A stretch of DNA of 64,000 nucleotides from Dehalococcoidia bacterium (GCA_965220225.1 OZ244813.1:1891385-1955384), one strand, 5' to 3'. Shown: positions 2,452-64,000, counted from the first letter of the stretch. The notes: generated from the letters alone by a model not told the origin. Program-made: numbers and translations.

Positions 2452-2551
2452 GTTGCACCTTCCCGGTTCTTGGTTGGGGCGCGCGCCGCGCCCGGCGGGA
2501 TTCTATGCGAACGCGGGGAGACGGGAAAGTGCGGATTGCAGGCAAGGGAAC

Positions 2552-2628
2552 TGGGGTGAGCGGAGGGAATCGAACCCTCGATCTCCAGGGCCACAACCTG
2601 GCGTCTTAACCCCTCGACCACGCCCACC
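2552..2628 (-). tRNA. tRNA-His (anticodon GTG) with encoded G-1 and CCA
   Basis: The reverse complement reads GGTGGGCG..CCAGG-TTGTGGC-CCTGG..GAGGGTTCGATTCCCTC-CGCTCAC-C-CCA. It has a 7-bp acceptor stem, the extra 5' G typical of tRNA-His, a GTG anticodon in a 7-nt loop and a canonical T-loop. Confidence 0.9.
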
Positions 2629-2780
2629 ACGGAATGTTGATTGTAGCAGAAGGCGAGCGCGGCGGCGGCGAAGCTGCGGCATTCCGCATGCTTGTCCGGT
2701 TCACTACGACCTCTTGTCGCTATACGATTTTCTCCCGTGGCGCGCGGCCGCATGGCCGAACGGGAACAGAGGAGAGGGGT

Positions 2781-3008
2781 ATGGCGAAGAATGCTGGGAT
2801 AAGCCAGTTTGTGACGTTACTTGCCCTCGTGATCGCTCCCGTAGGCATGTTCCTTACCTACAACGGCGTGAATGACCTGCGTGTCGTGACCGCAACGGTG
2901 TTCTCTGTGGCCTGGCTATCCTTGTGGATGCTCGCGTACTACAGGAAGTCGACCATGCAGCGCGTCCGTGCGCACGAGGACCTCGCCGCCGCCGATCCCC
3001 CTGAATAG
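2781..3008 (+). CDS. small membrane protein (75 aa), hypothetical
   Basis: Internal ATG of track ORF 2634..3008, preceded by GGAGAGGGG. Two hydrophobic helices (ISQFVTLLALVIAPVGMFL and VTATVFSVAWLSLWMLAYY). Confidence 0.45.
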   Translation: MAKNAGISQFVTLLALVIAPVGMFLTYNGVNDLRVVTATVFSVAWLSLWMLAYYRKSTMQRVRAHEDLAAADPPE

Positions 3009-3158
3009 CACGTCCTTCCCAGTCTGCGTTCCCCATCATGCGACACCGTCGCTCCCCGCCCGCCGTGAATGCCGGCGGCTCTTGCATGCCACATGCGGAA
3101 GCGGGGGGTATAGTCTGGGTGAACGCGGCAGAACGGCAAGCGCGAAGGGAGAGGGCCG

Positions 3159-3944
3159 ATGTCCGAAGAAGTGAAACGGTTCAAGTATCCCGGCCCCGGG
3201 GACCCGGGTGCACGCGACCGCGGCCCCACGAGAGGACGTTCGTACGACCTGCTCTCCAACCACCTCGTCATCAGCACCGTTCAGGTCATGGAGAAGGGGC
3301 AGACCACCGGGCTCCACCATCACGACGACCAGGACGGCTACTGGATGGTGCTCGCCGGTAGGGCGCGTTTCACCGGCGAGGGCGACGCACACTACGGCGA
3401 CCTCGGCCCGATGGACGGCATCTTCATGCCCCGCTACAACCGTTATTCGTTCGAGAGCATCGACGACGAGCCGTTGCAGATACTGCGCGTCAGCCAACTG
3501 CGGCCGGTGGAAGGGAAGGCCCAGGCGAGAGAACGGGACGTACGGAACGAGGCGAAGCGGTTCAGCTACCCTGGCGCCGCAGACCCCGGCGCGCGGGACA
3601 GAGGTCCCGACAAGGGGCGCTCGTACGACCTGCTCTACAACGACAGCATGGTAAGTACCGTCCAGATCATGCAGAAGGGGCAGGGCAACGCGCTCCACTA
3701 CCACAACGACCAGGACGGCTACTGGATGGTGCTCGCGGGGAAGGCGCGTTACTTCGGCGAAGGCGATACGCACTTCGGGGACCTCAGCCAGGCGGAGGGC
3801 ATCTACACGCCGCGCTACACGCGCTACGGGTTCGAGTGCATCAGCGACGAGCCGCTGCAGATACTCCGCGTGAGCCAACTGCGGCCGATTGAGGGGAGGC
3901 CTCGTCCGAAGGGACGAGGGTCGCCCGGCATCGCCGTAACGTAG
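3159..3944 (+). CDS. bicupin protein (two tandem cupin domains), function unknown
   Basis: 261 aa. The two halves align closely (KRFKYPGPGDPGARDRGPTRGRSYDLL...GLHHHDDQDGYWMVLAGRARFTGEGD... versus KRFSYPGAADPGARDRGPDKGRSYDLL...ALHYHNDQDGYWMVLAGKARYFGEGD...). Each half has a cupin-like H-x-H...G motif. Confidence 0.75.
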   Translation: MSEEVKRFKYPGPGDPGARDRGPTRGRSYDLLSNHLVISTVQVMEKGQTTGLHHHDDQDGYWMVLAGRARFTGEGDAHYGDLGPMDGIFMPRYNRYSFESIDDEPLQILRVSQLRPVEGKAQARERDVRNEAKRFSYPGAADPGARDRGPDKGRSYDLLYNDSMVSTVQIMQKGQGNALHYHNDQDGYWMVLAGKARYFGEGDTHFGDLSQAEGIYTPRYTRYGFECISDEPLQILRVSQLRPIEGRPRPKGRGSPGIAVT

Positions 3945-3956
3945 GGAGCATCCGCG

Positions 3957-5483
3957 CTAGGAGGCGGCTCCGGCTAGGTCCTCCACGAGGCGTACGAGCG
4001 TGCGGGTGGGGACGCCCGTCGCGCCCTTGACGACGTGGCCGGCGGCGCGCTCCGACATGAACGTTCCCGCGATGTCCAGGTGCGCCCACTCGACGCCGTC
4101 CGTGAACTCGCCGATGAACAGCGCCGCCGTGATGCTCCCTGCCGGGCGTCCGCCCGTATTCTTGACGTCCGCGTAGTCGGAGCGGTTCTGCCGCTTGTAC
4201 TCCTCGAACAGGGGCAACTGCCACATCTTCTCGCCCGTTGCCTTCGACGCCGAGAGCACCGAGTCCACGAGCTCCTGCGATGTCCCCATGACACCACTCG
4301 CGACGTGCCCGAGCGCGACAACGACCGCACCGGTGAGCGTCGCGATGTCGACCACGCGGCGCGCCTTCTTGACCTCCTTGATGTAGCAGATGGCGTCGGC
4401 CAGGATCAGGCGCCCCTCAGCGTCCGTGTTGTCGACCTCGATCGTCTTGCCATTCATGGCGCGGATGATGTCGCCCGGGCGCTGGGCAGTCCCGGAGGGC
4501 ATGTTCTCGACCGCAGGCACGACGCCGAAGACGTTGATCTTCGGTTTGAGGGCCGCGATGCCCTTCATCGCGCCGATGACCGACGCCCCGCCGCTCATGT
4601 CGCCCTTCATCTCCCACATGCTGGCCGCGGGCTTGATGGAGATGCCACCGGAGTCGAACGTGATGCCCTTGCCCACGATGGCGACGTTGTTCTCGGGGTG
4701 CTCCGGGTCGCCTGCGTACTCCATGATGATGAGGCGCGGCTCATTCGCGCTGCCCTGCGTCACGGCCAGCATCGCGCCCATGCCGCGCTCCATCATGTCC
4801 TCGCGCCCCAACACGGTGATGGGAAGGCCGGCGTCGTTCGCCACGTCGGTCGCGACCTCGGCCATGCGAGTGGGGTTCACGACGTTAGCAGGCTCGTTGA
4901 CGAGGTCGCGTGCAACGATGGCGCACTCGGCGAGGAGCGTGCCTTTGGCGGCGCCGGCGGCGAGCGTCTGGACGCGGTGCTCGTCGCGCTCGACGATGAC
5001 GAGGTCGTCGAGGGACTTGGCGTCGTCACTGCCGTTCGACGATGAGCGGTAGCGCTTGAACTCGTAGAGGCCGAGCACCGTGCCCTCCGCCATGGCCTGC
5101 GCCGATTCGCCCGCGTCCAACCCACCGATGCCCGCGCCATGCGCGATGGCCGCGGCGCGCTTCGCGCCCAGTTGCCGGAGGCGGCGCGCTAAGCCGCCGG
5201 AGACCGAACGGACCACGTCCGTGTTGAAGCGCTCCCGCTTGCCGAGTCCGGCAACCACGACCCGCTTGGCGGGCAGTCTGCCGAACGTATGGATGGTGGC
5301 GGTCTCACCCTGCTTACCGGCGATCTCCTTGTCCGCGATGAGTGCGGAGATCGCGCCGTCCAGGGCCGCGTCGACCGCGCCTGTCCCGCCCCCCGGCGAG
5401 GTCACTCCCTCGAACAGGTTGACGACGATGGCGTCTGCGTCGTACCGGGTGATATCGCCTTGCTCAACTCGCACGGTGGTCAT
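3957..5483 (-). CDS. pepA: leucyl aminopeptidase (M17 family)
   Basis: 508 aa. M17 hallmarks VGKGITFDSGGISIKP and NTDAEGRLILADA. Confidence 0.95.
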   Translation of the reverse strand: MTTVRVEQGDITRYDADAIVVNLFEGVTSPGGGTGAVDAALDGAISALIADKEIAGKQGETATIHTFGRLPAKRVVVAGLGKRERFNTDVVRSVSGGLARRLRQLGAKRAAAIAHGAGIGGLDAGESAQAMAEGTVLGLYEFKRYRSSSNGSDDAKSLDDLVIVERDEHRVQTLAAGAAKGTLLAECAIVARDLVNEPANVVNPTRMAEVATDVANDAGLPITVLGREDMMERGMGAMLAVTQGSANEPRLIIMEYAGDPEHPENNVAIVGKGITFDSGGISIKPAASMWEMKGDMSGGASVIGAMKGIAALKPKINVFGVVPAVENMPSGTAQRPGDIIRAMNGKTIEVDNTDAEGRLILADAICYIKEVKKARRVVDIATLTGAVVVALGHVASGVMGTSQELVDSVLSASKATGEKMWQLPLFEEYKRQNRSDYADVKNTGGRPAGSITAALFIGEFTDGVEWAHLDIAGTFMSERAAGHVVKGATGVPTRTLVRLVEDLAGAAS

Positions 5484-37605: not shown

Positions 37606-37615
37606 CCCCCCCCCC
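37606..37615. repeat. C10 homopolymer inside a G5/Cn hairpin
   Basis: GTGCCCCGGGGGCTG-CCCCCCCCCC-GAGGCAC. Confidence 0.9.
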
Positions 37616-52715: not shown

Positions 52716-55266
52716 TCAGTTCCCTGCGTCCTGGAAGTGACGTTCCATGAGTTGTATGACTACTGCCCTATCGCTCGGTTGCAGCCCCCCGTTGAAGTAG
52801 GCGTTGATGGCTCGAACAACCTCAGTTCTGTCGATCTTGCCGTTGCGGTTGTCGTCCCACTCATCCAAGAGGGCATCTCCAGCGGACGTGTCGTCTATAT
52901 CGGTGACGGTGACAATCACGGCCCGCACAGCTGGGTCGTTCTGTCCGTCATTCGCAGTCACTGTCACGTGATAGACGTTGTCTCCGGCCGCACTCCCTTG
53001 TGCTTCGTAGTCAGGAGGCGCCTTGAAGGTGAGCACGCCTCCAGAGGAGATGGTGAACTTTCCGGAATCAACCCCGGCAAGGGACCATCGCGCCATTGTT
53101 GCCAGGGGCCCCACTGCCCTGTAGGTCGTGACCGGAGCTGAGCCATTCTCGGCATATCGCAGGCTGTTCGGACCTACCACGGCCAGCCCTCCCCTTCGGA
53201 TCATTGGGGTTTCTTGTAGATCGGTGACCCTGATGGTCACGTTCGCGGTCGCACTCGCTCCGTCCGGGTCCGTCGCCTTCACACGGACCACGTAACTGCT
53301 CTTCGTCTCGTAGTCCAACGTCGTCCCAGCCTTCACCGAGAGCTGCCCACTCGGACGATCAATAGTGAACAAGGCCGCATCACCGCTCAACTCATACGTC
53401 AGTGGCCTTCCCTCGGGATCCGTGGCGGCGACGGCATCACCTAAGGCAGTGACCGACGTGAACTCCTGTTCCGCCTGCTCAATCACCTTGATGCTCTCGT
53501 CTGGGTCCGTGTGCGGGTCGTCGAACCACGGCGGCCTGTTCGAGTCGTCCACAGCACTTGAGGACACTGCAGATGCGCTCTTCCCCGGACCCTGACGGTC
53601 CGTGTACATCGCCGTCGCGCGCAGGTACTTGGCCGCGTCCGCGTGAACCGGGGTGTAGGCAGCAGACGTTGCACCGCCGATGACCATGACGTTGTCACCG
53701 CCGCCGAAGCCAGCGTTATCTGCCCTCTCCCACTTCCAGGTGACCCGTGAGGGCGTTCCGTCCTGATCCCCCGTGAGCGTAGCCGTCAACGCAACGCCGA
53801 CCTTCGGCACCAGCGTCGACAGGCTCACCTCCCCAGGCTCATCCACGTTCGTCACCATCACCGCCACGTTCAGGACGTCGGTCATTCCGGCGCTGTCCCG
53901 CGCCGTCACCGTCACGTTGTACGTGTTGTTCCTGCCCGCATCCGCAGGTGACTCGTAGTCAGGCACCGCCTTGAAGGCAAGCTCCCACGTGCCGTTGGTG
54001 TCGCTGTCAGTCAGCGTGAATGCACCCGCATCAGCTCCAGACAGTTCCACTCTAACGGGTGTGCTGGCGGCGTCATCTTCATCGTCAGTCACCGTGTACG
54101 TGGCAACCGCAGTTGTTATGGCGGTGTTCTCTGCGTATGACACGGATACCTCACCGCTCAACTCAGGCGCCTCCGGCACGTCTGTCACCGCGATGCTCAC
54201 GTCAATGGAGTCGGAATAAGCCCCCGAGTTATCCGAACCGGTGAAATTGCCGTCCGCCACTGTGACGGTGACTTCGTAGGAGGGTTCATCTTCGGTGTTC
54301 AGCACGGTGCCGGCGCCCACCCTGATCTGGCCGTTCGAGTCGATCGTGAACTTGTCAGCGTCCTCCCCCCCCCCCCAGCGTGAACGTCAGCACATCACCC
54401 TCAGGGTTGCTGGCCCTGAGGGGCGTACCTACCGATGTGCCTGCTGGCGAGTTTTCTCGGACCTCTCGATCGATAGAGGCAGCCGTGACTGCATTTCCAT
54501 CGCTATCCACGATCACCGGGGCGGCGTTCGAGGCTCGGCCTGCCAACACCTTCACATCCGACACAACCAACTCTTGTTTTCCAGAGCCTGCGGGGTCGGT
54601 GTAGGTCACCGTCACACGCAGGTAGCGCCCTATGTCCGTCGGATCCGGGATGTACTTGGCCGCCCGGGAACCGTTGGTGTCAGTCGCCTCTATTCCGACG
54701 AACGAACCTGACTGGCTAGAGCCCCGCGCCCACTGCCACCGCTCATCTGAGACATCACCGTCAACGTCGGTGAGCGTAGCTGTCAATGCAACCCCCACAA
54801 CCGGCTGGCGATTCGACAGCGTCAACGTTGCGGGCTCATCCTCGTTCGTGACCTTCACGACGATGGGGTAGCGGCCCTGACCGCCGGCACTGTCTGTGGC
54901 CACCACTTCCAATCTATACGTATTCGCAGCATCGTCCGAGCCGCCACTCTTCGCATCTTCATAGTCGGGAGACTCCTTGAAGGCAAGCACGCCTCTTTGG
55001 GAGATGTCGAAGTATCCAGCATCCTCACCCTGCACCGACCAAGTCAGCGCTCTCCCCGCCTTGTCGTCTTCATCGTCCGTAGCCGTGAACGTAGCCACTG
55101 GGCTGTCCACCGGCGTGTGCTCGGCATACTCGATGGTCTCGGGTGACTGGGCGTAGAGGAACGCGACGGGGAGCAACCAGAAGCCGAGCGCCAGAGATAC
55201 GATCAACGCCAGCACGGGCAGTAAGACGTTCCGTCGAGAGAGGGAGCGATTCAACTCTTGTCGCAT
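52716..55266 (-). pseudogene. cadherin-repeat surface protein with C-terminal EF-hand/dockerin-like motif, split by a frameshift in a G12 tract (possibly phase-variable rather than dead)
   Basis: Track ORFs 54355..55353 and 52716..54320 are two halves. The upstream half has RBS GAGGAAG, ATG 55266 and a signal anchor, and ends ..VLTFTLGGGGGR*. One G fewer gives ..TFTLGGGEDADKFTIDSNGQIRVGAGTVLNTEDEPSYEVTVTVADG.., a canonical cadherin repeat. 2551 nt minus 1 is 850 codons. The C-terminus has DEWDDNRNGKIDRTEVV. Confidence 0.8.
54365..54376. repeat. C12 (G12 on the coding strand) homopolymer inside the cadherin gene
   Basis: TCCT-CCCCCCCCCCCC-AGCG read directly from the sequence. Confidence 0.95.
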
Positions 55267-55530
55267 TGACTTCCTCGGATGTAAGGATGGGTTAATCCGC
55301 ACAGGAGGGCACAGACGGAATCTATGTTGGCTTGCAGAGAGCCGGGGTGTCACCCCGATAAAGGTGTGAGATGGTGTGCATCTCAGTGCCGCCCCCGTGC
55401 CGGAGTTCCGCCGCCTCGGCCTGTATGACCGGCAGCCGGATGATGGTCATGGGACGGCTCGGCTGCGTCACCCGCATGCCCAAGTGGCTGCAACCACGCC
55501 ATGGCCTCGAGGGAATCCCATGCTGTCGTC

Positions 55531-55962: not shown

Positions 55963-56571
55963 TCAATATAGCCGTTGCCGGTTGGCCTCATCCTCTTCGG
56001 CGTCGATCTGCGCCGCGTCCGCTCCTGCTATCTGGTCGGCCAGCACCTGTCCGTAGGTGGGATACGACGACCGATCGATCTGGGCTCCAGGGTCCCAGAT
56101 GTGGCTGCGGATCAGCGCCCGTCCGCAGTGCAGGAAAGCCTCCTCCACCGTCACCTTCAAGCCGGAAGCCGGAGCCCGGCGGCCAATGGCTAACGGTGCC
56201 AACAACTCCGGGTCAGTGACGATCTCTCCTCTGCCCTTCACCCGCAGGGTTTCATTCATTCCGGGCACGAAGAACAGCAGGCCTACGCTGGGATTCGCCA
56301 CGATATTCTGCAACGAGTCCACTTGGTTGTTCCCGGGACGGTCGGGCAGCAGTAGGGTACTTTCGTCCAGCACTAGCACGAACCCGGGCGGGTCTCCCCG
56401 TGGCGAGGCGTCGGGCTGGCCTTGGGCGTTACTGGTGCTCAGGACGCAGAACGGCGACAGCGCTATGAAGTTGCGGCAGTGAACGTCTAGACGGTCCACT
56501 ATCTTCTGTTCCGCCCGGGGCGCAGGGGGGCGATAAACCTCCCTCAGTTCTTCGCGATTGGTAATGGCCAT
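55963..56571 (-). CDS. pyridoxamine 5'-phosphate oxidase-family FMN-binding protein
   Basis: AAGGAG RBS, ATG 56571. ..FIALSPFCVLSTSNAQGQPDASPRGDPPGFVLVLDESTLLLPDRPGNNQVDSLQNIVANPSVGLLFFVPG..ETLRVKGRGEIV.. is the characteristic split-barrel PNPOx-related pattern. Confidence 0.85.
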   Translation of the reverse strand: MAITNREELREVYRPPAPRAEQKIVDRLDVHCRNFIALSPFCVLSTSNAQGQPDASPRGDPPGFVLVLDESTLLLPDRPGNNQVDSLQNIVANPSVGLLFFVPGMNETLRVKGRGEIVTDPELLAPLAIGRRAPASGLKVTVEEAFLHCGRALIRSHIWDPGAQIDRSSYPTYGQVLADQIAGADAAQIDAEEDEANRQRLY

Positions 56572-56741
56572 GACCCACTCCTTTACTTTGCGACACTGTA
56601 GCACACGTCAACAACCCGCCAGCGTCCTTTGGTGCGGGTACGCTACCGGGTGAATCTGCTTCGATGGCTGCTGTGCATAGTTGTGCAAGGGTGATAGCCT
56701 CGTCGTCGGTGCGGTTCGGGGGAAGGGACCGCACTGCTCCT

Positions 56742-56832: not shown

Positions 56833-56841
56833 GGGGGGGGG
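56833..56841. repeat. G9 homopolymer with the same flanks as the G12 tract at 63830
   Basis: CCTAGC-GGGGGGGGG-TAGGTC versus TTAGC-GGGGGGGGGGGG-TAGTGG. Confidence 0.9.
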
Positions 56842-57968
56842 TAGGTCAACAACCCTGACCACGCGTACCCGCCTTGGTCTGCACACGGATACCCCACCTC
56901 CATCCTTGACTCGGAGAAATCAGCGTGCGACTGCCACCTGGTGCTCTGCTCCATGAAGGAGAATGTGCAGCAGACCCATCTGCTCGGCGGGTGGTGAACA
57001 GGAAGAACAGCAGGCCGGGGGCCGGCTGCCCCCCCCGGCCTTCCATCGCATACGCACCGCGTGCTCACCCGCACTCTTCGGGCTAGCCCCTGCTAGGGGA
57101 GCTCGGCCGCATCCTTGAATTAGCCGCTTGGGGAAGTCCTCTGGGAAGAAGGAGGGATTGACATGATGGACCCACTGCCGACGCAGTCACGGTGTCCTAT
57201 CCACTGGTACCCAGACGACGATCATGCTGTCCCAGCCGATGTGCGTGCCCTAGCCTCCGAGGAACACGCGTGGCGAGATTCACGGTGACGAGCATCGCAC
57301 CGCCGTTGAGTCATTCGCCTTTCCGCCACTGCTGGAACTGCTTCGGGCCCACGCCGATGCAGCACACCACATCCTCGCGGGATGCTATTCGCGGCGAACG
57401 TCGGACCGCAGGGACAGCACTACAGACTGACTCACGAGGATGCAGGCCGAGCGCTCAGCGTTCAGGTCGACGTCTACGGCGGTGACCAATCCTCTTCGAA
57501 CAGGCCCACGGGAGACGAGAGCACCGCTTCATAGGCGGCTACCTTCCGCTCCCGGGCAGTCGAGTAGGCAGCATCCGCGTTGACGATAGCTTCCGGGTCG
57601 CCGGAGTCCTTTGCAGGTCCGAGCTCCTCTCCATCCCCAAGGTCGACCCCCGCTTCGCCGGATCGCCTCTCGTCGTTCACTACTGCGACCTCCTCCCACA
57701 CTACGACTCCAATCGAGACCTGCGTCGCTATGTGCCGCAAGGCTGCAGGGAAGCTGCATGCCACAAGGCGCCAAGTTCTAGGCGTTCACCTATGGCGACG
57801 TCTGTGTGAATCCCCGCGCTGTGAATCTCGCAACAGCGGAGGATGGTGACGCATTACTGTTCACCGCAAGGATGCTGCACTGGATGAGTGGCAAGCCGAG
57901 CAGGGGACATGGCTTCGCCAAAATGGACGGCCTGAGCTTATCTCTGCCCCGGTTCCAAGTTCCGCCTC

Positions 57969-60900
57969 CTAGCGCGAGCGAGCGTAGATGTAGACCGCTA
58001 CCGCGATGAGCGCGATGACGAGCAGCGCGACCGCCCATACCCAGGCGGGCACGCCGCCGCCATCGCCTGGTTCCACCGGTGGAGGAGCGGGCGTCATCGT
58101 GGGCTCCGGAACAGGCGTGGTCGTCGGTTGGGGAGTGGGCGTGGCGGCGGGTTGCAGTGTGGGCGTGGCCGTGGGTTGCGGCGTGGGCGTGGCCGTGGGC
58201 TCCGGAACAGGCGTGGTCGTCGGTTGGAGAGTGGGCGTGGCCGTGGGTTGCGGCGTGGGCGTGGCCGTGGGTTGCGGCGTGGGCGTGGCCGTGGGTTGCG
58301 GCGTGGGCGTGGCCGTGGGTTGCGGCGTGGGCGTGGCCGTGGGTTGCGGCGTAGGCGTTCCCGTGGGCTGCGGCGTAGGCGTTCCCGTGGGCTGCTGGGG
58401 GGCGGTGACGGTGACGATTACGGTGATGTCGTCCGAGTCATATTCGCTGTCGCGCACGAGCACGACCAAGCGGTACGTGCCCTGCTCCTCGTGATCGAGC
58501 GCGATACGCGTGCGGATCTGACCCGTGTCCGCGTCGACCGAGAACGCCTTGCGCGCTGCGCTGTCGCCGCTGACCGTCCACACGAGGCGGGTGGAGTCTC
58601 TGTCCCTGACGCGCAGCGGACCGCCAACCGACGCACCGGGCTCGAGGCCCGACGCGACCGTCCGCGTCGTCTCGCGCCCCTCCAAGAACACCGGCGGTGC
58701 GTTGGACGACGCGGTGGAGGCGCGACCGCCTCCGCCGCTGCCACTGCCACTACCGGCACTGGTCGGGGGTGGGTCGTTATCGCGCACCGCTACCGCCGCC
58801 GTTGCCGATGCCGGTGAGCCGAGGGTGTAGCCGCTGCCAGCATTCAGCGTCACCCTCACCGAGCCGTTCGACTCGTCTGCGCTATCGTTCACCGTCGGGA
58901 TGGTGAACGTCGTACTGCGCCCACTGAGGCTGCGTGTCTTGCCGCTGCCGAGCTCCCCTGAGGCCACGAACCGCCCGCTCTGCGTCACCGTGTAGCGCAC
59001 GGTGATGCCCCCGCCCGGCACGGGGTTCGACGAGACGGTGAAGGAAGCGCTGCCGCCCTCCGTCACAGCGGAGCCGCCGCGGATGGTCAGCACCGGGACT
59101 CCCGCCGTATCGTTGTCCGTGATCGTCAGCGTGTGAACACGCGTTGCCCCCCGGTTGTATCCCTGACCGCTGGCCAAGGTCAGTACCACCGTCTCCGCGC
59201 TCTCCGCCGCGCCGTCGTCGGTGATGGCGACGGGGATGGTGGCAGTGCCGGAGGTGCCCACCTGTATGGTCCCGGTGTTGCTCGTCACGCCGCTGATGGT
59301 GTAATCCGTGCCCCGAGTCGCCGTGCCGGAGATCGCGTAACTCACTGTGACCGTGGCCGTTGGGGTCGGGTTCAGGTTCAACGTGACGTTGCGCGTTCCC
59401 GCGCTCTCCGCAGCGCTCGATGCGGACCGCGCGAAGTTCGCCACAGGCGTCCCCGTCCCGTCGTTGTCGGTGACTGTCAGCGTGTGGACACGTGTCGTTC
59501 CAAGCGCGTAGCCCGTGCCGGTGTTCAGGGTCAGAATCACCGTCTCCGAGCTCTCCGCGGTGTTGTCGTCGGTTATGGCGACGGGGATATCGACGAAGGT
59601 GGCCCCCCCGATAACGCTAGCCGTGCCGCTGTTGCTGGTCACCCCGCTGATGCCGTAGTCCGTCCCCCGCACCGCCGTGCCGGAAAGCGTGTAGTTGACC
59701 GTGATGTTCTGGTATGGCGTGGGGCTGAGGTTGACACGGACGTTACGCGTCCCCCCGCCCTCGGCGAAGGTGCCCGCGCCCGACGCGAACTGCGCCGTCG
59801 GCACATCGTTGTCGTTCACCGTCACCGTTGCCGACGACGGCGAGCCAATGGTGTATCCCGTGCCGTTGTTCAGCGCGACCGTCACCGAGCCGTTCGCCTC
59901 GTCCAAGTTATCGTTCAGCGTCGGAATCGTGAACGTCGTGTTGCTTGCGCTGATGGGGCGCGACTTGTTGCTGCCGAGTTGCCCGGAGGCCACGAACTGC
60001 CCGTTCTGCGAGACCGTATAGCGCACAGTGATGCTCCCGCTCGGCGCGGGGTTCGACGAGATGGTGAACGAGGCGTTGTTGCCCTCGGTCACGGCGGAGC
60101 CGCCGGCGATGGTCAGCACTGGTGTCCCGCCGCCCCCGTCGCTGGCGCTGATGGTGCGCGTGTGGATGAGCGGCTCGTTGCGCGCGTATTGCGTGCTGCT
60201 GAGGATCGTCACGATGATGGTCTCCGCGCCCTCCCCCGCGCTGTCGTCGATGATGGCGATGGGGATGTTGACGGAGGTGGTGCCCGCGCTGACGGTCATC
60301 GTGCGGCTGGTGCCGGTCCCGCCGCTGACGGTGTAGTCCGTGCCGAGGGTCGCCGTGCCGGACAGCTCGTACTTCAGCGTGATGTTGCCGGATGGCGCGG
60401 GGTTGAAGTTCAGCACCAGGTCCGTCGAGCCCGAGTTCTCGCTCACGGTCGATGTCGCCGCAGCGAAGGAGACCTGCGGCGTGACCGGCTGATCGTCGTC
60501 ATTGATGGACACGGTGGCCGAGGCACTCGTCATCGACGGCGTATAGCCCGTGCCCGTATCGACGGTCACTGTCACGGAGCCGTTCGCCTCATCGACGTTG
60601 TCGTCCCCCGTGGAGACGGTGATGGACGCGCTTCCGGTCGTCGGGATGGCGACCGTGCGTGAACCGGGAGTTACGCCGAAGTCGCCCGTCTGTGTCACGC
60701 TCAGGTTCACTGTGATGGTCGCACTCGGCGCGGGGCTGGCAGTGACGGTGAACGTGGCGTTGTTGCCCTCCGTGACCGCCCCCGCGTCCGCAGTGATGGA
60801 GACTGTGGGGGTGGCAGCGGGGGTCTCCGCCTGGAAGATCTGCGAGATGCCCAGGATGCGGCGGGAGCCGACCTTACCCTCGGCAGCCTGGCTGACGGGG

Positions 60901-63797
60901 TTGTTGCTCGCGCCCCACTGACCCAGACGGACATTCGCCCCGGAGTGCCCCAGTGGATCGGTCGAGGCGGTTCCGGCCGTGGCGTGGGTCGTGCCCGTCT
61001 GTGTGCCGGTCCATGTCTTCACTGCGCTGGCCACAGCCTGCCCGTCGGTCCCACGCGTATCGTTAGCCAACTGAGCGTCCCAGGTGCCGTCCCAGAAGTC
61101 GTTGTGGTCGTCGGCGATCTTGCCGCCCCCCAGCCAGTGGATGGGCGTCGTCCATGCCGTGTGGCCATATGTGCTGTCGCTGCTCTGGAGGATACCCGTC
61201 GCGGTGTGGAAGGCGGCGTCCACTGCCTCCGTGCTTCCCACCATCCGGAACGTCGAAGAGTAGTCCTGAATGGCTGCGTGTGGCGTTGGCGTCGTGCCCG
61301 ATGCGGACGCGTCCGACTGCACCCACGCGTCGTAGGTGGCGATGTCTGCGTTCTCGGCATTCCGTGCGTCGCCGAGGAAGACGAGGCGGAACTGCTGGCC
61401 CGCCGTGATGCCGACGGGAGTTAGTGCCCAGTCGTTTGGAACGACGTTCACGTCGACGATCTGCACTGTCACAGATCCGGTGTCCGGGTCCGGGGCGTAG
61501 CCGGAAGGCACAGACGTCACGGTCAGCGTGAACGCCTCTGCCCCCTCGATTTTGGTGTCCGCGGGGATGCTCAGGTCGAATGTGGCGGAGGTCTGTCCGG
61601 CCGGTATGGTCAGGTTCCACGGGCCGCCGGTCCAATCGTCGGGAGTGGCGGTCCCCGCCGTCGCGGTGACCGTAACGGTGATGTCGGAGAGCTGCGCCTC
61701 CGAGATGACCACGGGGATCGACAACGTCGTGCCTTCGCGGATGTTGTAGCCGTCCTCGCGCTCGAAGCCGAAAGTCGGCACCGGCTCCACCTCGAACACC
61801 GTCGAGAGGCCATAGAGGCGCCCTTGAGCGTTGCGCTGAGTGGCTCCATGGGAGATCGGATCGCCGCCGGAGAGGATGCCCCTGATCACGTATCTGTTAC
61901 CGACGCTGTATCTGCCCAGGGTGTTGCGACCTGTATCTTTCGTGCCGTCGGGTTCACTGCCGGTCAGGACATCGTTGTTGCTGCCTTGCTTGTCTCCGTG
62001 TTCCGTTTTGTAGTTCCCGGCTGTCCACGTGTTGTCGCTGTCGTTGTCAACATGGAGGAAGTGGTGGTAGTTGTTGGCGATCTTGTCGCCGTTGATCCAG
62101 TAGATAGGGATGCCGGACGAGCTGTTGCCGGTTGAGTCGTCGGTGTAGGCGTTCGTGTCCGCGTCCCACAGGCCGGTGTTCAACCGCGCGTCGATATCTC
62201 CGGTAGAGGCGAAGACGCCGAAGAGCTTGCTGTACGCCCGGATGTCGCTGTGCCCGTTCGCCGCCGCGTCCCGCACGAAGGCGTTGAAGACATCAATGCT
62301 ATCGTCATCGGCAGTCCGCGTATTCTTGGTCACGAACAGCAGGCGGAACCGGTCGCCGATGTTCAAGCCCTCCGGACGCAGCGGCCAATCGTAGGGAACG
62401 AGGGTAAGGGGGATGACGTTGTTGATATCCACCGTGACGGTCGCGGCGCTCGGGTCCACTAAGTAGCCCGACGGGACCGACGTGAAGGTCAGCGTGAACC
62501 GCTCCATCGTCTCGTGGAGGCTGCTGTCACCGGCTATCTCTATGTCGAATGACACGGACGTCTGGCCGCTCGCTAGCGTGACGGTCCAGGGGCCGCCGGA
62601 CCAGTCATCGGCGTCGGCTGTGTCCGGCGTGGCGGTGATTGTGATGGTCACGTCGGACGTATGCGCCTCCGAGGCCGTTAGCGACACCGTCAGCGTCTCA
62701 CCTTCGTCGAGGGTGAAGCTGGTCGTATCGAAGCTGAGCGTCTTCGCGGCAACCTCGAACACGCCGGACAGGCCGATGTACACGTTGTCGCTGCCCACCG
62801 GGATGTCGCCCTGGTTGATGGGGTTCTGGCCCCCGGTACCGCCCCAGCGGGTATGGGTGCCGGAAGTACCCAACTGCTTGCCGGATATCGCGACACCGGC
62901 GTTCGAGTGCTGGTTGCCGGTCGAGGTGCCGGTGTTGGGGCCTCTCGTATTGGTGGAAGCGTTGCCGTTGGCATTGCGCATATGGGCATCGTTGTTGTTG
63001 TCCCAAGTGCCGTCGTAGAAGTCGTTGTAGTCGTCGGCGATCTTCGGGCCGTTCAGCCAGTAGATCTTGTGCGACAAATCCGTGTGGCTGGGCTCACCGC
63101 TCACCATGATGCCGGTGGCGGTGTGCCAGGCGGCGTCGACGGCGGGAGTGCTGCCCACCACCCGGAAGGTCGGCGCGTACTGACGGATGTCGGTGTGGCC
63201 GGTGCTCGAGCCGCTGATGCGGTTGCGCACGAAGGTGTCGTAGTCGCCGATATTGGCGGAGTTGGCATCGCGCTCAGTTTCGGTCTTGAACAGCAGCCGG
63301 AACTGCTCGCCGGGGTTCACATCGCTGGGTATGAGACTCCAGTTCTCGGGCACGATGCTCACGTTCACGACCTGGACGCTGGCCGAGCTGTTCGTGCCCA
63401 ACGCGAAACCGGACGGCGGGGAGTCTATGGTGATGGTGAGCGTCTCGTAGTCCTCGATATGACTGTCTGCAAGGATGGGGATGTTGCAGACGTGGGCATT
63501 TCGGCCGGAAGGAACGGTGCAGGTGTGCGGACCTGCGGCGAAGTCCGTGCCCGCCGTAGCCGTGCCCGCAGTGGTGGTGATGGAGAACGTCGCTTGGGAT
63601 GAGGTTGCTATGCTGAAAGTCAGTGTCGGTGAAAGGTTCCTGCCTTCGAGCACGTTGTAATCGGCACGCTCGAACTGGACGGTAATGGTGGACTGTGCGC
63701 TGGACTCAGGCGCGGGGAGCCCCCACAACAGAAGCGCCGCCAGCGCGGCAATCAGCGCGGGCGTCAGTAGCCTGCGCATCATTGCCACGGCGCTCAT
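57969..63797 (-). CDS. giant (1942 aa) surface protein: three [beta-sandwich + ~210-aa uncharacterised module] units, ~9 Calx-beta domains, one cadherin-like domain, P/T octapeptide repeats and a C-terminal TM anchor
   Basis: Signal peptide [34 protein letters not shown]. Calx-beta motifs such as [12 protein letters not shown]...[21 protein letters not shown]. Cadherin-like NAPPVFLEG...[21 protein letters not shown]. (TPTPQPTA)n. Then [30 protein letters not shown]. Confidence 0.9.
58100..58395. repeat. 24-bp tandem repeat array encoding (TPTPQPTA)n
   Basis: GGCGTGGGCGTGGCCGTGGGTTGC repeats head to tail about 12 times with minor variants. Confidence 0.9.
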
Positions 63798-63829
63798 GCT
63801 ACGCGCCTCGGTGTGTTTGTGAAATTAGC

Positions 63830-63841
63830 GGGGGGGGGGGG
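63830..63841. repeat. G12 (C12 on the gene strand) homopolymer 33-44 nt upstream of the 1942-aa gene start
   Basis: Gene-strand context: CTTACATACCACTA-CCCCCCCCCCCC-GCTAATTTCACAAACACACCGAGGCGCGTAGC-ATG. Confidence 0.95.
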
Positions 63842-64000
63842 TAGTGGTATGTAAGGGGTGGAATCAGGCGTGGCTAACGCATGGGAAGGCGCACGGGAGT
63901 CCTGCATCTTGGTGATGTCAAAACCCCGATGCTGGAGGCTCCCATGCTCCTCCCGAGGGAATGCTGTCAGGTTCAGAAGATCAACTCCCAAGGCAACCGG

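Follow-up and report, generated by a model that had tools for sequence, protein, structure and literature searches.

Slipped-strand contingency loci are textbook biology of host-adapted pathogens. Repeat tracts in the 5' end of multi-copy adhesin genes, where the signal peptide is encoded, are found in the opa genes of Neisseria (CTCTT) and in the hop, sabA and oipA genes of Helicobacter pylori (CT repeats), and poly-G/C tracts occur in surface genes of Neisseria and Campylobacter. Homopolymers can also be located within the promoter spacer, as is the case for the poly-G of porA and the poly-C of opc in N. meningitidis and for the poly-A of vlp in Mycoplasma hyorhinis. The poly-G tracts of Treponema pallidum tpr subfamily II and of Moraxella catarrhalis uspA1 are upstream homopolymers which modulate transcription. 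Surface-antigen loci are in addition subject to silencing or to hybrid promoters mediated by insertion sequences (IS), for example by IS1301 in the meningococcal capsule and porA loci, and the ends of such elements commonly supply the outward -35 box of a hybrid promoter. A further promoter-spacer homopolymer is the poly-C of fim2/fim3 in Bordetella (PMC1891110).

The homopolymer analysed here is a C12 tract near the end of a 64,000-nucleotide stretch of DNA, in the following called the window, and it precedes the gene of a 1942-aa surface protein. Taking a run of at least 8 nt at the 5' end or in the promoter of a surface-structure gene as the mark of a contingency locus, we find such a run in the C12, 32 nt before the ATG. 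SSR contingency loci are already known as a kind; the tract is a new member, in lineages for which the searchable public literature reports none. A literature search found no paper linking phase variation to sponge symbionts.

The Calx-beta/cadherin family to which the 1942-aa protein belongs resembles the opa and H. pylori OMP genes in several respects. Its slippage-prone repeat separates the start codon from the signal peptide, a genome contains several paralogues that differ in tract length, and both in-frame and out-of-frame alleles occur in nature (L031 and L032 versus L033; L005 versus L006 and L007). Unlike these systems, the hosts are uncultured sponge symbionts of several phyla and not pathogens, the switching would be a prediction, and the homopolymers of the family measure 10-19 nt, with up to 22 nt at an IS junction. 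The window tract furthermore lies outside the ORF, from which it is separated by an in-frame TAA.

The window shares with fim2/fim3, porA, opc and vlp a G/C homopolymer just upstream of an adhesin gene, and a distant homologue, L019, fits this type in silico. In contrast to these promoters, the window tract is not flanked by credible -35 and -10 elements, the spacing amounts to 21-22 nt and the -35-like box comes from an IS end. As in tpr and uspA1, a surface-protein gene has a G/C homopolymer of about 8-12 nt some tens of nt before its ATG. The dependence of transcription on length was measured for these two systems; in the window the native upstream DNA appears to be replaced by the IS. The relatives of the element agree with the IS4 family and the IS1301 cases by a DDE (PF01609) transposase, by 23-bp terminal inverted repeats and by 10-11 bp target duplications, and the element itself by its place in the control region of a surface-protein gene. 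Unlike in the IS1301 cases, the target would have been the contingency homopolymer itself, and this twice independently (in the window and in L002).

The tract and its sister runs

On the gene strand the tract is read as CCCCTTACATACCACTA-C12-GCTAATTTCACAAACACACCGAGGCGCGTAGC-ATG, and on the plus strand as GTGAAATTAGC-G12-TAGTGGTATGTAAGGGG with the run at 63830-63841. The complement of the start codon, CAT, occupies 63795-63797, and the gap between tract and start is exactly 32 nt (63798-63829). The sequence bears out the preliminary description, in which a C12 tract had been placed 32 nt 5' of the ATG of the 1942-aa gene. The region contains the following features:

57969-63797, minus strand: gene of a 1942-aa secreted Calx-beta/cadherin surface protein (ORF and domain search)
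63806-63809, minus strand: GAGG, Shine-Dalgarno-like, 8 nt 5' of the ATG (read from the sequence)
63825-63827, minus strand: TAA in frame with the ATG, 2 nt past the tract (frames through the tract)
63830-63841, minus strand: C12 homopolymer, G12 on the plus strand (crossed without gaps by contigs of S1 and X4)
63842-64000, plus strand: left end of an IS4-like insertion sequence with terminal-repeat region, 5' UTR and first transposase codons, running off the window end

The 1942-aa protein contains Calx-beta domains (six matches, 2.7e-46) and one cadherin domain (1.2e-10), a signal peptide (35 letters, followed by S) and a C-terminal P/T linker with a TM helix. Owing to the in-frame TAA after the tract, the tract is located outside the main ORF whatever its length, and a frame switch in the signal-peptide region by a translated tract is not found in the window. 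A search for same-species copies of the gene found none: the best protein match showed 66% identity, and a scan of JGI metagenomes yielded one distant locus. An exact protein look-up of the 1942-, 1937- and 1936-aa products gave no match. A leucyl aminopeptidase encoded in the window has its named relatives in Chloroflexota MAGs only, with an identity of 75%.

A census of the runs of at least 8 nt revealed C10 at 37606, C12 at 54365, G9 at 56833, C8 at 57029 and G12 at 63830. This confirmed that the two 12-mers at 54365 and 63830 are the longest runs of the window, as had been noted before. At the GC content of the window of 63.8%, chance predicts about 3.1 runs of at least 9 nt and 0.10 runs of at least 12 nt, and two 12-mers were observed. 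The G12 is therefore unexpected; the G9 alone is not.

All sequencing runs containing window DNA are sponge metagenomes or derive from the host, and the Logan contigs of these samples were compared. The tract is present as G12, with 0 gaps, in the contigs of four S1 runs and in the independent sample X4. The identical G12 in independent samples demonstrates that the tract is no assembly artefact. For X6, X7, X13 and X14 (depth 2-8x) the contigs do not continue through the tract; they end at the run or immediately before it, and a likeness of 80% and a share of 1% did not change this. No length variation at 63830 was seen between S1 and X4, the two samples which resolve the tract (both G12). 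The same comparison provided data on the other runs of the window:

37606-37615, plus strand: sister tract C10; C12 in X4 and X7, C8 in X8
54365-54376, plus strand: sister tract C12 within a cadherin-repeat gene, on whose strand it reads G12 (sample contigs)
56833-56841, plus strand: second tract, G9 in the context TAGC-Gn-TAG; TG7 in X4 and X7, TG6 in X13
57029-57036, plus strand: sister tract C8; C9 in X6, C7 in part of X7, CCTCG insertion in X8

All four of these runs of at least 8 nt vary by 1-4 nt between sponge samples, with few SNPs as background. At 54365 a length of 12, as found in S1, is out of frame, and lengths of 8, 11 or 14 are in frame; the tract is 4 nt shorter in X8, X4 and X13 (a clean C8 in X8 and X4, C>T or C>A exchanges inside the tract in X13). 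Between X4 and S1 three of the four sister tracts differ and the tract at 63830 is equal. This equality may be due to chance or to a constraint, which would mean a still-functional tract. Written as G runs, the tracts at 37606-37615 and 57029-57036 share the context C-Gn-CAGCC...CCCCGG. At window 55373-55375, between the cadherin-repeat gene and its upstream region, the contigs of X4 and X7 contain about 800 extra bases, which represent an insertion/deletion polymorphism relative to the window.

A context CTA-Cn-GCTA common to the tract and to the run at 56833 had also been proposed. The flanks TAGC-Gn-TAG are identical at 63830 and 56833, and the 7 shared nt are real, with P = 6.5e-4 per random pair and P of about 0.01 after allowing for 10 pairs and two orientations. 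An extended homology of the flanks was rejected, as only 12 of 30 and 6 of 30 positions match beyond these 7 nt, so that the claim holds for the immediate context and no further. The right flank consists of IS DNA at 63830 and is not IS-like at 56833. We read the resemblance as a probable coincidence or a weak sequence preference. No Pfam match was obtained for the ORF scraps on either side of 56833, and the PNPOx gene (55963-56604) sits behind a strong hairpin.

An IS4-like element next to the tract

Using blastn, window positions 63843-63979 were found to match the left end of ten 1333-bp IS copies with 71% identity over 138 nt (E = 6e-11). The alignment starts at IS base 6, which corresponds to window 63843, and contains no gap in the terminal-repeat region. 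CTGAC, with which the terminal repeat of the family begins, is not recognisable in the window, and the IS boundary is therefore uncertain by about 5 nt. The portion inside the window comprises 159 nt of the left end only, and it is 72.5% identical to the IS of L002. An ORF on the plus strand starting at 63881 (family start Met at 63944) encodes MGRRTGVLHLGDVKTPMLEAPMLLPRECCQVQ..., which is homologous to the N-terminus of the transposase. Altogether 40 transposase codons are visible in the window (MGRR...MLLPRE...), about 50% identical to the N-terminus of the L002 transposase. The transposase of the relatives matches PF01609 (2.6e-10), and the best NCBIfam hits are IS4-family models (NF033591 with 99 bits, which is below the cut-off of 152). 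The IS family is highly abundant, as more than 1600 matches were obtained in the same assemblies; further copies inside the 64-kb window were searched for and not found.

In the adhesin paralogue L002 (positions 2471-5209), two tandem IS4-like copies of 1345 bp are located within a poly-C tract. These copies possess 23-bp terminal inverted repeats (CTTACAGGGGTAGGTATGGCCTG); the layout is C22-IS-C13-IS-C16-gene, and towards the gene the copies have the orientation seen in the window. Five of the ten 1333-bp copies (L020-L029) are flanked by exact target duplications of 10-11 bp. The 1333-bp copies have targets rich in runs of G or C, such as GGGGAGGGGGA, TGTAGGGGCGG and GGGGAAACCC, which suggests a preference of the IS for homopolymer-like DNA as target. 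Since G/C-run targets are duplicated over 10-11 bp, insertion into a homopolymer would leave a homopolymer on both sides of the element.

Tracts at the 5' ends of homologous genes

Residues 1-360 of the protein were searched against contigs of one genome per species, and more homologues were fetched via a protein index. The search identified 18 loci in sponge MAGs. Five of them are paralogues in one MAG labelled Dehalococcoidia and two share another MAG with this label; the further labels include Tepidiformaceae, Acidimicrobiia, Rhodothermales and Pseudomonadales. Among the 17 homologues whose 5' end is readable and whose identity is at least 55%, the window counted, 16 carry a C or G run of 10-19 nt. 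The tract-bearing homologues of this group come from MAGs labelled Dehalococcoidia, Acidimicrobiia and Rhodothermales. The tract is absent in one close homologue, L035 (63% identity). The homologues from the protein index carry C12 (L030), G16 (L031), G14 (L032) and G12 (L033), and a Pseudomonadales homologue with 36% identity, L013, contains an in-frame C14. The locus L034 was dropped as evidence for 5' ends, being an internal fragment of a larger gene. Within the 350 kb of fetched DNA, 17 of the 23 runs of at least 9 nt sit at the 5' end of a homologue.

The run is always located directly 5' of the segment coding for the signal peptide, about 75-230 nt before the codon of the signal-peptidase site. 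The distance to the conserved A-x-A-Q cleavage codon is 99-133 nt in nine loci and 229 nt in L011; counting by hand gave 134 nt for the window, about 106 nt for L001 and about 75 nt for L013. The length of the run differs between closely related loci: L003 and L004 have runs of 18 and 13 nt at an upstream identity of 98%, and L005, L006 and L007 have runs of 16, 15 and 12 nt at upstream identities of 95-98%. An upstream ATG precedes the run in L001, L008, L011, L013, L030, L031 and L032, and from there the run is read in frame into the signal peptide. Judged from these sequences, the family layout matches a classical intragenic slipped-strand ON/OFF contingency locus. The homopolymer on the coding strand consists of either C or G, and its function would therefore lie in slippage at the DNA level and not in a poly-Pro or RNA motif. 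The choice between C and G points to the slippery homopolymer as the probable conserved trait.

Three orthologues from different samples carry coding-strand runs of different length, namely G12 in L033 (90-101), G14 in L032 (2068-2081) and G16 in L031 (2106-2121). The G12 of L033 is an out-of-frame allele in which TAG immediately follows the run; with G13 the reading frame would be intact again. For this locus the gene caller took a downstream ATG, which truncates the signal peptide.

A contig of the sponge metatranscriptome X22 extends over the 5' end of L001, the homologue from Rhodothermales (4456-4777), including the poly-C tract. This contig begins more than 90 nt upstream of the L001-type tract and spans it, and the tract is therefore transcribed there, with the caveat that DNA can contaminate RNA libraries. 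The L001-type gene thus appears to be expressed in the sponge. At this site the X22 strain shows C9T in place of C10 and an extra ATG codon. The organism of the window is absent from X22, the sole metatranscriptome found.

The adhesin genes of different species-level MAGs, L012 (5296-6000) on the one hand and L006, L003 and L004 on the other, are 98-99% identical from about 100 nt past the tract onward, whereas the part before this point (promoter, tract flanks and signal peptide) is unrelated. This mosaic structure indicates that the genes recently recombined or were transferred, and that the breakpoint lay at the 5' end.

Readings of the locus

We consider it probable that the C12 is a contingency tract of the adhesin family which was hit by an IS4-like element, and that it is not the spacer between a -35 and a -10 box. 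In this case, almost all giant Calx-beta/cadherin proteins of this family in sponge-associated bacteria would be headed by a hypermutable homopolymer directly 5' of the signal-peptide segment, with the C12 as the copy in the window. The length of the family tract would change by slipped-strand mispairing, and in several members, in which the tract lies between start codon and signal peptide, such a change would switch the frame ON or OFF. An IS4-like element, with target duplications of about 11 bp and a predicted preference for targets rich in G/C runs, would have inserted into the window tract, and the run would since then form the junction of IS end and gene. The native upstream DNA, including the promoter and any upstream start codon, would have been displaced by the IS. 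With the run excluded from the ORF by the in-frame TAA, translation would proceed from the gene's own GAGG-ATG (or from Met6/7) downstream. The run itself is most likely what remains of the family switch, still prone to slippage, and would be, partly or wholly, one copy of the target duplication of the IS. From these comparisons we infer that slippage occurs at the 63830 tract itself, that the tract existed before the IS inserted into it, and that the switch function was lost or weakened in the window copy.

A more far-reaching interpretation is tentative. Sponge symbionts from four or more phyla might share, by horizontal transfer, a selectively maintained homopolymer ON/OFF switch at the head of their giant Calx-beta/cadherin adhesins, and the IS4-like element, which would insert preferentially in the tracts, might add a second, slower or irreversible tier of control. 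The 11-bp target duplication would re-create the homopolymer on each side of the IS, and the window would show the second tier in action.

According to the preliminary description, the length of the tract would set the spacing between a -35-like and a -10-like hexamer. The sites which are relevant for this proposal are the following:

63849-63854, minus strand: TTACAT, the proposed -35-like hexamer, inside the IS terminal-repeat region (blastn alignment)
63822-63827, minus strand: TAATTT, the proposed -10-like hexamer, with three of six matches to TATAAT (consensus comparison)
63796-63823, minus strand: TTCACA-N16-TAGCAT, the sole sigma-70-like site (consensus match only), downstream of the tract

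TTACAT agrees with TTGACA at two of six positions and the hexamer shifted by one base, CTTACA, at four of six. With C12 the spacing to TAATTT is 21 nt from TTACAT and 22 nt from CTTACA. Using standard criteria, which are based on the E. coli consensus and may not fit Chloroflexota promoters, a sigma-70-like pair spanning the tract was not found at any length from C4 to C20. A relaxed scan of the same range yielded only the pair CTTACA-TAATTT, with seven of twelve matches and a spacing of 16-18 nt at C6-C8 only. Moreover, TTACAT is located inside the terminal repeat of the IS and is therefore no native promoter DNA. The proposal that tract length adjusts the -35/-10 spacing is not supported, in view of the weak hexamers, their distance of 21-22 nt, the lack of a spanning pair between C4 and C20 and the origin of the -35 box from an IS end. 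The broader idea of a phase-variable adhesin tract survives in part: a slippage-prone run at the 5' end of the adhesin gene is present, and this in almost the whole family, but the promoter-spacer mechanism did not hold. A spacer of the fim/porA/opc type, whose ON alleles have a spacing near 17 bp, is not found in the window, where a usable spacing occurs only at C6-C8 and under relaxed criteria.

The position of the site TTCACA-N16-TAGCAT is independent of the tract length, and its -10 box overlaps the ATG. If this site is used, translation probably starts at Met6/Met7 (MMRRLL...). The sole promoter-like site of the Dehalococcoidia paralogues is located about 160 nt upstream of the tract, which therefore lies within the leader in these genes. 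The distant homologue L019 (2805-2840; 37% identity, on a JGI metagenome contig) contains the sequence TTGACA-AAAAAAA-G9-TACAAT with the homopolymer within a 16-nt spacer. A predicted promoter-spacer arrangement is thus present in the wider family, and it is unsupported for the window copy.

It is unlikely that transcription of the 1942-aa gene is still switched or graded by the tract. This could occur by two routes: a hybrid promoter consisting of CTTACA or TTACAT from the IS end and the native TAATTT would be active only after contraction to about C6-C8, or the tract length would shift the distance or the helical phase of IS-borne or upstream elements relative to the core promoter TTCACA-N16-TAGCAT. 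The first route would agree with the outward -35 boxes commonly supplied by IS ends and with the CTTACA-N16..18-TAATTT pair seen at C6-C8 under relaxed criteria, and L019 demonstrates a G9 within a textbook TTGACA-N16-TACAAT promoter. An unchanged G12 in two populations which differ at three of four sister tracts would also be compatible with selection on length. However, the hexamers are weak (seven of twelve matches), standard criteria yield no pair whatever the tract length, and with a spacing of 21-22 nt the assembled state would be OFF in both populations. In silico, a change of the tract length had no effect on the reading frame, created no spanning promoter and left the fold unaffected, so that no change of expression is predicted. 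An anti-Shine-Dalgarno role of the tract in the RNA was tried as well and is disfavoured, because the tract remains unpaired in the predicted fold, with one and the same minimum free energy from C6 to C16.

Action of the tract at the level of translation appears quite improbable. The candidate is an upstream ORF which reads the run as poly-proline:

63794-63907, minus strand: 37-codon upstream ORF without Shine-Dalgarno motif, tract read as Pro4, terminal TGA overlapping the main ATG (ATGA); speculative

The stop codon of this ORF overlaps the main start in one of three phases, and the tract length would then select between termination-reinitiation, out-of-frame read-through and fusion to the main ORF. 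ORFs which start with ATG, cross the tract and end at -2 or +1 of the main start occur in the window and in L012, L004, L006, L007 and L002, and the overlap of stop and start is ATGA in the window, TTGA in L012 and TGATG in L004, L006 and L007. The upstream ORF of the L005 type has a GAGGGA Shine-Dalgarno sequence 7 nt upstream. The window ORF, in contrast, has none and begins in IS-derived DNA, and the G-run members L031-L033 work as plain in-frame tracts. At 64% GC long open frames are common, and chance overlaps of stop and start are expected at about 0.2 per independent sequence, which makes the three cases only suggestive. Our low rating of this reading follows from overlaps being expected in about one fifth of sequences and from the start of the ORF in IS DNA.

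As an observation on the relatives, a short ORF (MKALIGRVTSMVT-Pn...) is conserved in L003-L009 about 37 nt 5' of the tract; it is preceded by a GAGGGA Shine-Dalgarno sequence and enters the tract. Depending on the tract length this short ORF is fused to the adhesin ORF (L005), ends with a TGATG stop over the start (L004, L006 and L007) or continues out of frame (L003 and L009).

That the run is a chance homopolymer without meaning, or an artefact of sequencing or assembly, is highly improbable. In its favour, about three runs of at least 9 nt are expected in a window of this composition, and the tract is a frequent break point of Illumina contigs. Against it, the expectation for runs of at least 12 nt is only 0.10, independent samples carry the same G12, and homologues from short-read (k141) as well as long-read-style assemblies have a run at the same position.

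The reading of the C12 as a family contingency tract hit by an IS has practical consequences. It calls for caution in the search for promoters, as a plausible -35/-10 pair around the homopolymer included the end of a mobile element. The tracts may explain many giant genes in long-read MAGs which are annotated as "frameshifted" or 5'-truncated, and they would be preferred landing sites of an abundant IS. If the interpretation with two tiers of control is true, mutualists of an animal without adaptive immunity would have a stochastic surface variation of the kind known from pathogens, with several independently switchable paralogues per genome. If 5' homopolymers switch giant adhesins, symbionts of several phyla in one sponge would share a portable mechanism of surface variation. 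This would bear on how sponges discriminate symbionts from food, and on phage pressure as a force that shapes their communities.
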